A stretch of DNA of 12,380 nt from Chlamydiota bacterium (GTDB taxonomy: Bacteria; Chlamydiota; Chlamydiia; Chlamydiales; SM23-39), in NCBI GenBank assembly GCA_048498835.1, contig JBEHXF010000052.1, positions 1-12,380 on the forward strand, written 5' to 3'. Position 1 is the stretch's first letter. Every line of letters starts with the position of its first letter. Below, in pieces: positions 1 through 4,727 of this stretch. A program made the position numbers and the translations under genes. The notes under the pieces were generated by a model that was not told the DNA's origin, did not search any database, and worked only from the letters and a program-made list of their open reading frames with translations.

Positions 1-2
1 TA

Positions 3-170
3 GCGGAGGGATGCCCTCCGCACCACCCAGAGCCCCCTTGTTTTTGCAGCGCAAAAACCCACCACGACTCAAATTTTTTTATCTAAGCGATATCCGTTTA
101 CTAGAATCTTAGGTGGCGCTTGATTAAAAAATTTCCCTCGTGGATTGAGCTGACGCTCAACCGGGGGCTC
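3..170 (+). repeat. Structured palindromic element, copy A (terminal hairpin plus 4-way junction); possible MITE/REP-like element or ncRNA
   Basis: Hairpin GCGGAGGG(3-10)/CCCTCCGC(14-21). Closing stem GAGCCCCC(30-37)/GGGGGCTC(163-170). Inside it: GTTTTTGC(40-47)/GCAAAAAC(51-58), a long imperfect stem from 62-89 to 117-143, and TTGAGC(145-150)/GCTCAA(155-160). Strand is arbitrary, and the element may extend left of the window. Confidence 0.75.
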
Positions 171-186
171 CTGATTACACACTGCT

Positions 187-351
187 GCAGTTCCGACTTG
201 ACCGAAGGGCAAGGCGCAGGCGAAATTTGTTTCCTCAAGCCCTAGCGAGAATCTCGAATCCTTAGAATGGCTTGGAGGAAACTAATTTGGCCGAGAGCTT
301 TTTGCGCAGCAAAAGGGAACTGCTTCTCTTTGGGGTGCGGGGCTTCCCCGC
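187..351 (-). repeat. Structured palindromic element, copy B (inverted, diverged homolog of copy A)
   Basis: In + coordinates: closing stem GCAGTTCC(187-194)/GGAACTGC(316-323), small hairpin 197-213, long stem 219-241/269-292, TTTTGC-GCA-GCAAAA (300-314), and terminal hairpin GCGGGG-CTT-CCCCGC (337-351). Read on the - strand, the modules occur in the same order as in copy A. Confidence 0.75.
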
Positions 352-376
352 CTCTGTGGTTGTTTATCTCTGTGGT
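352..376. repeat. Direct repeat CTCTGTGGT x2 (period 16)
   Basis: CTCTGTGGT at 352-360 and at 368-376. Confidence 0.6.
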
Positions 377-390
377 GAATTTTTTCGAAT

Positions 391-426
391 CGGGCACGGG
401 CACGCACACGGGCGCGGGCACGGCCG
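391..426. repeat. Degenerate hexamer tandem repeat (CGGGCA)x6
   Basis: CGGGCA CGGGCA CGCACA CGGGCG CGGGCA CGGCCG. Confidence 0.85.
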
Positions 427-453
427 CTTCGCGTTCCCTCTATTACTCTTCTG

Positions 454-981
454 TTAGAAGGAGATGCCGTAGGAGAGGGAGGGGATGGGAATGAAGTGGG
501 TGTTGAGGTGAAGCCTGTGGCCATCGAGCCAGATGAGGGGGAAGCCGAGCTTGCCTTCGATGAAATGAAAATGGTTTCGGATACGAAATTGGTAGCCAGT
601 GACTGCTCCTAGAGAGAGGTTGCTGCTTTGGCCGACAGGGTATTTGCCAAAGGTATAGTGGAGGGCTGTGCTAAGACCGAGGTAACTTTCGCTGGAGAGG
701 TTGGGTTTAGGGTAGTAGAGATGAGTGTATTGAAGAGATTGGCTAAAGACATTTGGAGGAAGAGTTGCTTCAGTGAGGGAAGCGTCGCCACCCCAGCGCT
801 CTTTTTGGAAACGGAAGCCGATGGAGAGTTTGGGAATGATGGCAGCAAAGCCGCCAGAGATATACCAATAGCTCGTTTGATTAAAGAGGGGAATAGAGGG
901 ATCGAGATCGGAAAGAGAGGGGACGGTTTGAGCGATGAGATTGGAGGCAATGAGAAGGGAGGCAAGAAATCGAAATTTCAT
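454..981 (-). CDS. Hypothetical exported protein, probable small outer-membrane beta-barrel
   Basis: 175 aa. N-terminal signal-peptide-like MKFRFLASLLIASNLIA, alternating aromatic/Gly strands (LSIGFRF, VTGYQF), and C-terminal beta-signal-like LSYGISF. Starts 8 nt after the gatB stop. Confidence 0.65.
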   Translation of the reverse strand: MKFRFLASLLIASNLIAQTVPSLSDLDPSIPLFNQTSYWYISGGFAAIIPKLSIGFRFQKERWGGDASLTEATLPPNVFSQSLQYTHLYYPKPNLSSESYLGLSTALHYTFGKYPVGQSSNLSLGAVTGYQFRIRNHFHFIEGKLGFPLIWLDGHRLHLNTHFIPIPSLSYGISF

Positions 982-4386: not shown

Positions 4387-4686
4387 ATGAGAGTACTTCG
4401 CTATATTGCGTTGATTTTGATCTTAATTGGAGCTTTAAATTGGGGCCTCGTAGGCTTTTTCCAATATGACCTCATTTCCAACATTTTTGGTGGCATGATG
4501 TCAACGGGAGCTCGCGTGGTTTACAGCTTAGTTGGAATCGCTGGCCTTTTCGGCATTGGCGCATTCCTAATGCATTGCTGTGGTTGTGGTTGCGCTTGCG
4601 GTTGCAACTGCGGTCCTAACTGCGGACCAAATTGCAACTGTGGCGGAAAATGCGGTGGAAACTGCAATTGCCGTCGACGCGACTAA
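4387..4686 (+). CDS. DUF378-family small membrane protein with Cys-rich (metallothionein-like) C-terminal tail
   Basis: DUF378 signature L.LIGALNWGLVGFF.YDL...IFG....AR.VY.LVGIAG. 13 Cys within 32 residues of the tail. Strong SD. Confidence 0.9.
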   Translation: MRVLRYIALILILIGALNWGLVGFFQYDLISNIFGGMMSTGARVVYSLVGIAGLFGIGAFLMHCCGCGCACGCNCGPNCGPNCNCGGKCGGNCNCRRRD

Positions 4687-4696
4687 CTATTTTCTT

Positions 4697-4727
4697 AAGA
4701 GGCGCAAAGTCTTGCGCCTCTTCTCTT
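4697..4727 (+). terminator. Probable intrinsic terminator after the DUF378 gene
   Basis: Perfect 11-bp stem AAGAGGCGCAA(4697-4707)/TTGCGCCTCTT(4712-4722) with loop AGTC, followed by a pyrimidine tract (weak U-run). Confidence 0.7.

Follow-up and report, generated by a model that had tools for sequence, protein, structure and literature searches.

What is the pair of inverted, diverged multi-stem repeats that stands at one end of a Chlamydiota contig, and what could have spread it? The window analysed here (12,380 nt) is an entire contig, C52, of a 1.97-Mb, 88-contig genome that is 96.9% complete, and its position 1 is a contig end. An earlier note on this DNA had described two inverted copies of one architecture with substituted stems that still pair, and had proposed selection on a folded RNA or single-stranded DNA. 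All five features that it listed for the two copies were found in place. The parts of the locus are as follows.

1 to 29, plus strand: inner end of the left outer arm, with the final 2 nt of a GACAGGATA repeat, GC hairpin H1a (3-21) and an ACCAC linker.
30 to 170, minus strand (the better-folding strand): module A, a four-way junction of the left subtype; the genome has five full or near-full copies.
171 to 186, no strand assigned: spacer between A and B, 16 nt, variable.
187 to 323, plus strand (the better-folding strand): module B, a four-way junction of the right subtype; the genome has four full copies.
324 to 380, minus strand: right outer arm, with GC hairpin H1b (337-351) and periodic CACCACAGAG repeats.
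385 to 435, minus strand: adjoining module of another repeat type, with GTGCCCG heptads and a CGC-GAA-GCG hairpin, belonging to the mosaic cluster.

The unit reads arm, hairpin, A, spacer, B, hairpin, arm, and spans about 380-450 bp. Its left outer arm is incomplete in the window, where the contig start cuts it, and the same left-arm stretch is present in full at C58, C38 and C66. The window also holds a 175-aa ORF with a signal-peptide-like start and no NCBIfam match between gatB and the repeat (454-981, minus strand), a gene for a 99-aa membrane protein with a Cys/Gly/Asn-rich C-terminal tail (4387-4686, plus strand) and, after that gene, a bidirectional terminator-like hairpin (about 4697-4724).

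Modules A and B share a plan of a closing stem and three hairpins, namely a T-run GC hairpin, a long stem with a 27-nt loop and a small hairpin. In A, all pairs form in the closing stem (30-37/163-170, 8/8), the T-run hairpin (40-58, 8/8) and the small hairpin (145-160, 6/6), and the long stem (62-89/117-143) forms 23 of 24 pairs, with a bulge at 84 and a loop at 90-116. The closing stem of B (323-316/187-194, minus strand) is likewise complete (8/8), as is its T-run hairpin (6/6, with a GC-GCA-GC loop); the inner long stem forms 17 of 19 pairs around its 27-nt loop (242-268), and the small hairpin has a C-GAA-G loop. The GC hairpins beside the modules pair at 8 of 8 positions (H1a, 3-21) and 6 of 6 (351-337, minus strand). 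The earlier note had counted the first GC hairpin as part of the element. It is a separate module, because only 16 of its 41 genome copies precede A or B, the other 25 standing without either next to them.

A and B are homologous, since B copies score 41-63 bits against a covariance model built from four copies of A; the window's own B scored 52 bits (E 3e-10) against a model built from A copies alone. We also considered the 27-nt loop as a guide or captured target and rejected the idea. Neither the A loop nor the spacer has a second match in the genome, and matches to the B loop are limited there to other B copies and four single 12-mers. Measured between anchors, the loop varies from 29 to 32 nt, and one relative (G321) has a long-stem loop of only three bases.

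The earlier note's suggestion of a multi-copy non-autonomous element that keeps its fold despite rewritten stems was borne out by copies in the genome and by pairs in relatives. A refined covariance model gave 12 matches in the genome itself: five full or near-full A modules, four full B modules and three partial ones. Whole or partial, A and B stand tail to tail at C52, C40, C75, C36 (twice), C13 and C66. Pairs are commonly fused through internal deletions, and many copies are truncated or chimeric; the spacer is a related 16-mer at C13, is deleted at C40 and C75 and measures about 31-59 nt in relatives. A k-mer map of the genome contained 128 repeat clusters, many of them shuffled modules.

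The clusters are intergenic and lie close after stop codons. We examined 34 clusters, and in 24 of them an ORF could be called on each side. Of these ORF pairs 10 are convergent, 12 tandem and 2 divergent, an enrichment between convergent genes relative to gaps of at least 100 bp under simple ORF calling (10/24 vs 90/610, the remaining gaps being 323 tandem and 197 divergent; Fisher p = 0.002). The C53 cluster has no counterpart in G005 and G001, in which the two convergent genes beside it lie directly next to each other. This site is empty in two of five sister species, which are too diverged for a target duplication to be read, and the other three are not syntenic; the gatB and rpiA sites have no synteny with relatives. 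Two further kinds of repeat were seen in G000. A multi-hairpin family of about 250 bp, unrelated in sequence to A and B (C2:74098-74376, C55:11363-11805, C12:45235-45358), has GTGCCCG heptad arms next to its C2 and C55 copies. Palindromes that contain no gene and carry AACGATATAACGAT arms and CAGGAT arms (C21:9559-9917, C23:18044-18415, C29:1044-1547, C34:4358-4820, C8:21385-21655) resemble the arms around GxxExxY genes, which are discussed below, in relatives such as that of locus L037.

By blastn, module A gave a single 21-nt match across 60 relatives, and 5 same-genus genomes gave no blastn match. Structure-aware and pattern searches retrieved true homologues with rewritten stems and the same fold. 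These include six further pairs (G374 C54, G439 C158, G321 C16, C25 and C51, and G414 C30), and pairs occur in at least 4 of 102 family genomes besides the source genome. Such carrier counts are lower bounds, as about 50 of the matched places were inspected and about 20 candidates per genome scored, with known members missed; G128 was left out of model scoring. The pairs in relatives are always gene-less, and spacers over all pairs range from 16 to about 60 nt. The two subtypes, left and right, can be told apart in different genera, with G374 carrying two right-type modules, and in G321 the pair is nested in two different arm families. Separately, G374 and G348, from two genera, share a long-palindrome family of about 135 bp (AAGAATCGG...CCGATTCTT; L336, L340, L342-L345) within further inverted flanks.

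Single modules of the same architecture, at most candidate homologues of A and B, were found in other families, in G078 (at least nine copies), G059 and G335. The similar junctions of G078 sit in periodic arms. At two places in that genome (C1:348985-350268 and 663373-664440; L075, L077) we observed tandem junction cassettes with periods of 565 bp and 584 bp, in some of which the long-stem loop is inverted.

Wider collections added little. Plasmids gave no blastn match, and pattern scans of viral sequences returned 0 and 1 locus, the single match not being a member. A metagenome pattern scan over 26 of 64 parts, with at least 120 loci among the matches listed, returned noise except for one locus (L280) that is almost identical to the G439 pair. 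The genome-collection pattern scan gave 65 loci, of which 61 were scored with the model; beyond G078-type modules the matches were confined to hairpin repeats that are partial or analogous, the best of them at 43 bits. In the phylum scan, the sole model match among 30 loci checked was a plain long palindrome. No gene-bearing form of A/B appeared in the exact-pattern collection scans, among the matches listed. The earlier note had not recognised a known family, and this agrees with Rfam: its covariance models had no match in window 1-380 at E up to 5 and matched only tRNAs in 13 homologous loci. Nor did we find an account of the element or of GxxExxY arms in the open-access full-text literature, supplements aside.

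These surveys also brought up repeats of other kinds. A second hairpin-rich class adjoins tRNA-like genes and copies their 3' end (a GGATTC/GAATCC-type T-arm) around T-run GC hairpins, sometimes in tandem. We saw it in G004 (C22 and C46), G414 C28, G450 C58, G453 C49, G017 C39, G440 C32, G321 C2 and G438 C40, at loci L473, L499, L498, L501, L502, L470, L471, L469 and L465, and also at L146 and L150; it may be a tRNA-anchored mobile element. A Victivallaceae-labelled genome carries a multi-copy branched repeat that starts with module A's CCCCCTTGTTTTTGC-nnn-GCAAAAA motif (L113, L114, L127, L133, L145, L149, L153, L162, L165).

We then asked which strand, and which nucleic acid, the fold belongs to. 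Folding z-scores were -7.7 (A) and -3.2 (B) as RNA, and -7.2 (A) and -3.9 (B) for the cores as DNA. The helices are as the earlier note described them, but the better-folding strand is opposite to the one it used in 13 of 13 family modules tested, under RNA and DNA parameters alike; in the G059, G078 and G335 modules strand preference is inconsistent. On the earlier note's strand, eight modules (one per subtype) carry 16 A.C vs 4 G.T mismatches, the former being wobble pairs on the other strand; the p value of 0.006 overstates this bias, since the modules are related and the stem alignments rough, one of them being misaligned. Covariation counts from one alignment were set aside, the alignment being structure-fitted and of mixed families. 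When window 1-380 was folded whole, the plus strand formed two separate junctions and neither strand a full-length hairpin.

The loops bear on the same question. On the preferred strand, 11 of 16 short-hairpin loops follow a C and have G as their first and A as their last base (GCA, GAA, GTCA, GTTA, GATTA), and 0 of the 4 GNNA loops are GNRA. The loop in the window's copy A is GCT, not GNA, and in G078 and G335 the G..A loops are on the other strand. According to the accessible text of one source, GCGNAGC and GCGNNAGC hairpins have extraordinary stability as DNA, whereas their RNA versions are far less stable (PMC13037366). Strand preference and the G..A loop type together point to a single-stranded DNA state; the wobble (G.T) bias alone fits RNA as well as DNA.

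If selection instead acted on RNA, the modules would serve as structures in 3' UTRs or as a small ncRNA, stabilising or processing read-through transcripts, with one well-folded module per strand. The strand-specific tolerance of G.U pairs, the sites a few bases past stop codons, the enrichment between convergent genes and the strong RNA folding scores all agree with this. We nevertheless consider it distinctly unlikely in view of the triloops and non-GNRA tetraloops, the many truncated or chimeric copies, the lack of blastn matches in the five same-genus genomes and the lack of an Rfam match. Of the earlier note's folded RNA or single-stranded DNA, then, the single-stranded state is supported, and an ncRNA is less likely on loop chemistry and patchy distribution. 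A different possibility is that the modules are dead relics in which template switching and gene conversion within palindromes keep stems paired, with no selection on the fold. Internal deletions are indeed frequent, and the long stems of G078 are near-perfect with loops inverted between copies. Template switching would not, however, preserve four helices together with G..A loops and a mismatch bias tied to one strand in different genera, and we regard this reading as very unlikely.

The earlier note had named REP/REPIN or IS200/IS605-type elements with HUH enzymes as candidates. Searches of the 96.9%-complete source genome gave 0 matches for Y1 transposase (PF01797) and reverse transcriptase (PF00078), and none for TnpB (PF07282) or the four-helix-bundle family. 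A conserved GTAG 5' of the hairpins is absent, with CAGAG or GGATA/GGAT preceding most of them. The proposed HUH/RAYT or IS200/IS605 partner therefore found no support in its own genome. As far as the accessible text of two sources goes (PMC8266576, PMC3733652), the element is like REP/BIME/REPIN repeats with RAYT in several ways: both are intergenic, lineage-specific, multi-copy palindromic repeats in mosaic clusters, both form inverted heterodimers with a variable spacer and a strand-specific single-stranded fold, and both kinds of repeat also occur on either side of a small enzyme gene at another place in the genome, whereas A/B units are four-way junctions of about 140 nt and REP units hairpins of 20-50 nt.

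Unlike REP/RAYT, the A/B element lacks the GTAG tag and its genome a HUH gene, and unlike RAYT, the gene flanked by A/B arms encodes a PD-(D/E)XK protein and is present in several copies. A true REP/REPIN or IS200/IS605-type substrate of a HUH tyrosine transposase is accordingly extremely unlikely: the accessible text does describe REP/BIME as heterodimers in inverted orientation, set in intergenic mosaics and bearing a single-strand signature, as seen here (PMC8266576), but PF01797 and PF07282 are unmatched and no conserved GTAG precedes the hairpins. The element does form inverted, intergenic, multi-copy dimers with a variable spacer, as REPINs do. By analogy it may work like a BIME/REPIN, and it falls outside that class on the GTAG tag and the HUH enzyme.

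A candidate enzyme came from the outer arms. The genome has three PF13366 genes, two confirmed as TIGR04256 (GxxExxY), and all have inverted arms. The gene at C60 has the window's 324-380 arm on both sides, inverted, and is broken by TAG; a gene at G003 C34 is likewise stop-broken between copies of that arm. At G302 C116 the flanks are a CAGGAT arm and H1b, the left-arm type of the window. The window's arms are thus common to the inverted arms of GxxExxY genes at these three loci; matches to the 324-380 arm occur in 16 of 68 family genomes. Inverted arms were present at 67 of 90 orientable family GxxExxY loci, and the GC hairpin occurs at no fewer than 5 loci and a T-run GC hairpin at 7. Among plausible short ORFs of the source genome, only the two intact GxxExxY genes lie inside inverted repeats; a third hit sits within a repeat cluster. 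All 29 aligned GxxExxY proteins share D81, E91 and K93, which is consistent with a PD-(D/E)XK active site. A comparison with solved structures gave nothing significant, and the accessible text of one source lists the function of GxxExxY (TIGR04256; Pfam PDDEXK_3, PF13366) as Unknown (PMC3424549). As a separate observation, G046 has 67 PF13366 matches, mostly 3' fragments with identical scores, which looks like a burst of truncated GxxExxY cassettes.

The junctions themselves were a different matter. The junction model had 0 matches at 91 GxxExxY loci (90 from the family and one from a neighbouring family), none of which is enclosed by A/B modules, so that no full-length copy with junctions around a GxxExxY gene was seen; two matches in that run both came from an added gene-less region. 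At one locus only, G321 C47, an arm and a contig-truncated A-type module follow just after a GxxExxY stop codon, facing away from the gene. G078 has no PF13366 match despite its nine or more junctions, and G414 (88% complete) is outside the 42 of 103 genomes with a GxxExxY gene. The arms of the element match those of GxxExxY gene loci; the element at 1-380 carries no gene of its own, and no GxxExxY gene was found enclosed by the junction pair. Observation links the arms to the enzyme gene, and for the junction pair the link is limited to nesting. The larger palindromic cassette has A and B as its core, and its arms are those of GxxExxY genes.

We give somewhat better than even chances to the reading that window 1-380 is a gene-less, palindromic, BIME/REPIN-like non-autonomous DNA cassette spread in trans by GxxExxY. 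Every enzymatic step of the nuclease's role is something we infer. While the DNA is transiently single-stranded, the module in the 3' half of each strand would fold into a four-way junction with GNA/GNNA mini-hairpins as caps. The GxxExxY nuclease would then recognise the arms or the hairpins and make its nick at that place, after which a copy would be inserted by host repair just past a stop codon, often into an earlier arm. Insertion into existing arms is proposed to build up the mosaic clusters. The divergence of A from B would let the cassette fold as two junctions rather than one long hairpin, which may help it evade hairpin-cleaving enzymes; REP heterodimers have been proposed to evade SbcCD by folding as separate structures (accessible text of PMC3733652). 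A bolder version, which we consider doubtful, proposes a class of mobile DNA that has not been described before. Its ends would fold, on single-stranded DNA, like Holliday junctions with GNA caps, and it would be moved by a PD-(D/E)XK nuclease of about 130 aa in place of an HUH, DDE, serine or tyrosine enzyme, with A and B as the left and right cleavage substrates.

The missing enclosure invites another explanation, in which the A/B pair marks the ends of a different, unseen autonomous element whose gene-less form inserts into GxxExxY arms as a safe site or rides along as cargo. Left and right subtype identity kept across genera, the same pair in two arm families within G321, enclosure of 0 of 91 GxxExxY loci and the absence of the gene from G078 would all follow. 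We think it unlikely, as the source genome has no other short gene enclosed by inverted repeats, the modules seen stood inside or beside GxxExxY-type arms, and the exact-pattern collection scans gave no gene-bearing form among the matches listed.

Taken as a cassette spread in trans by GxxExxY, the element also invites comparison with other small repeats. MITEs of insertion sequences are gene-less, bounded by inverted repeats and a few hundred bases long, as is the A/B cassette; the cassette differs in that its ends are periodic 9-10-nt arrays with inserted hairpins and that no DDE transposase is linked to it. Neisseria dRS3 and Rickettsia RPE are modular palindromic intergenic mosaics for which we know of no identified transposase. 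The A/B element is likewise a modular palindromic mosaic, but its motifs differ (no CGTC tag was seen), and it has a branched four-helix core and a candidate enzyme. Neisseria dRS3 mosaic arrays and Rickettsia RPE repeats are named as repeats in the accessible text of PMC3733652, in which the spread of palindromic intergenic repeats without RAYT is an open question.

Covarying cloverleaf repeats of this kind can pass for ncRNAs, and caution is warranted in reading them. Were the link to the enzyme to fail, the element would be a lineage-specific mosaic repeat of modest interest. If instead a class of DNA moved by a PD-(D/E)XK nuclease were confirmed, it would give the GxxExxY family its first function; these proteins are widespread, with their function listed as unknown in the accessible text of PMC3424549. 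The element offers natural, covarying, strand-assigned substrates of about 140 nt together with intact candidate enzymes in one genome, and this makes both the function of GxxExxY and the spread of repeats without RAYT directly testable.
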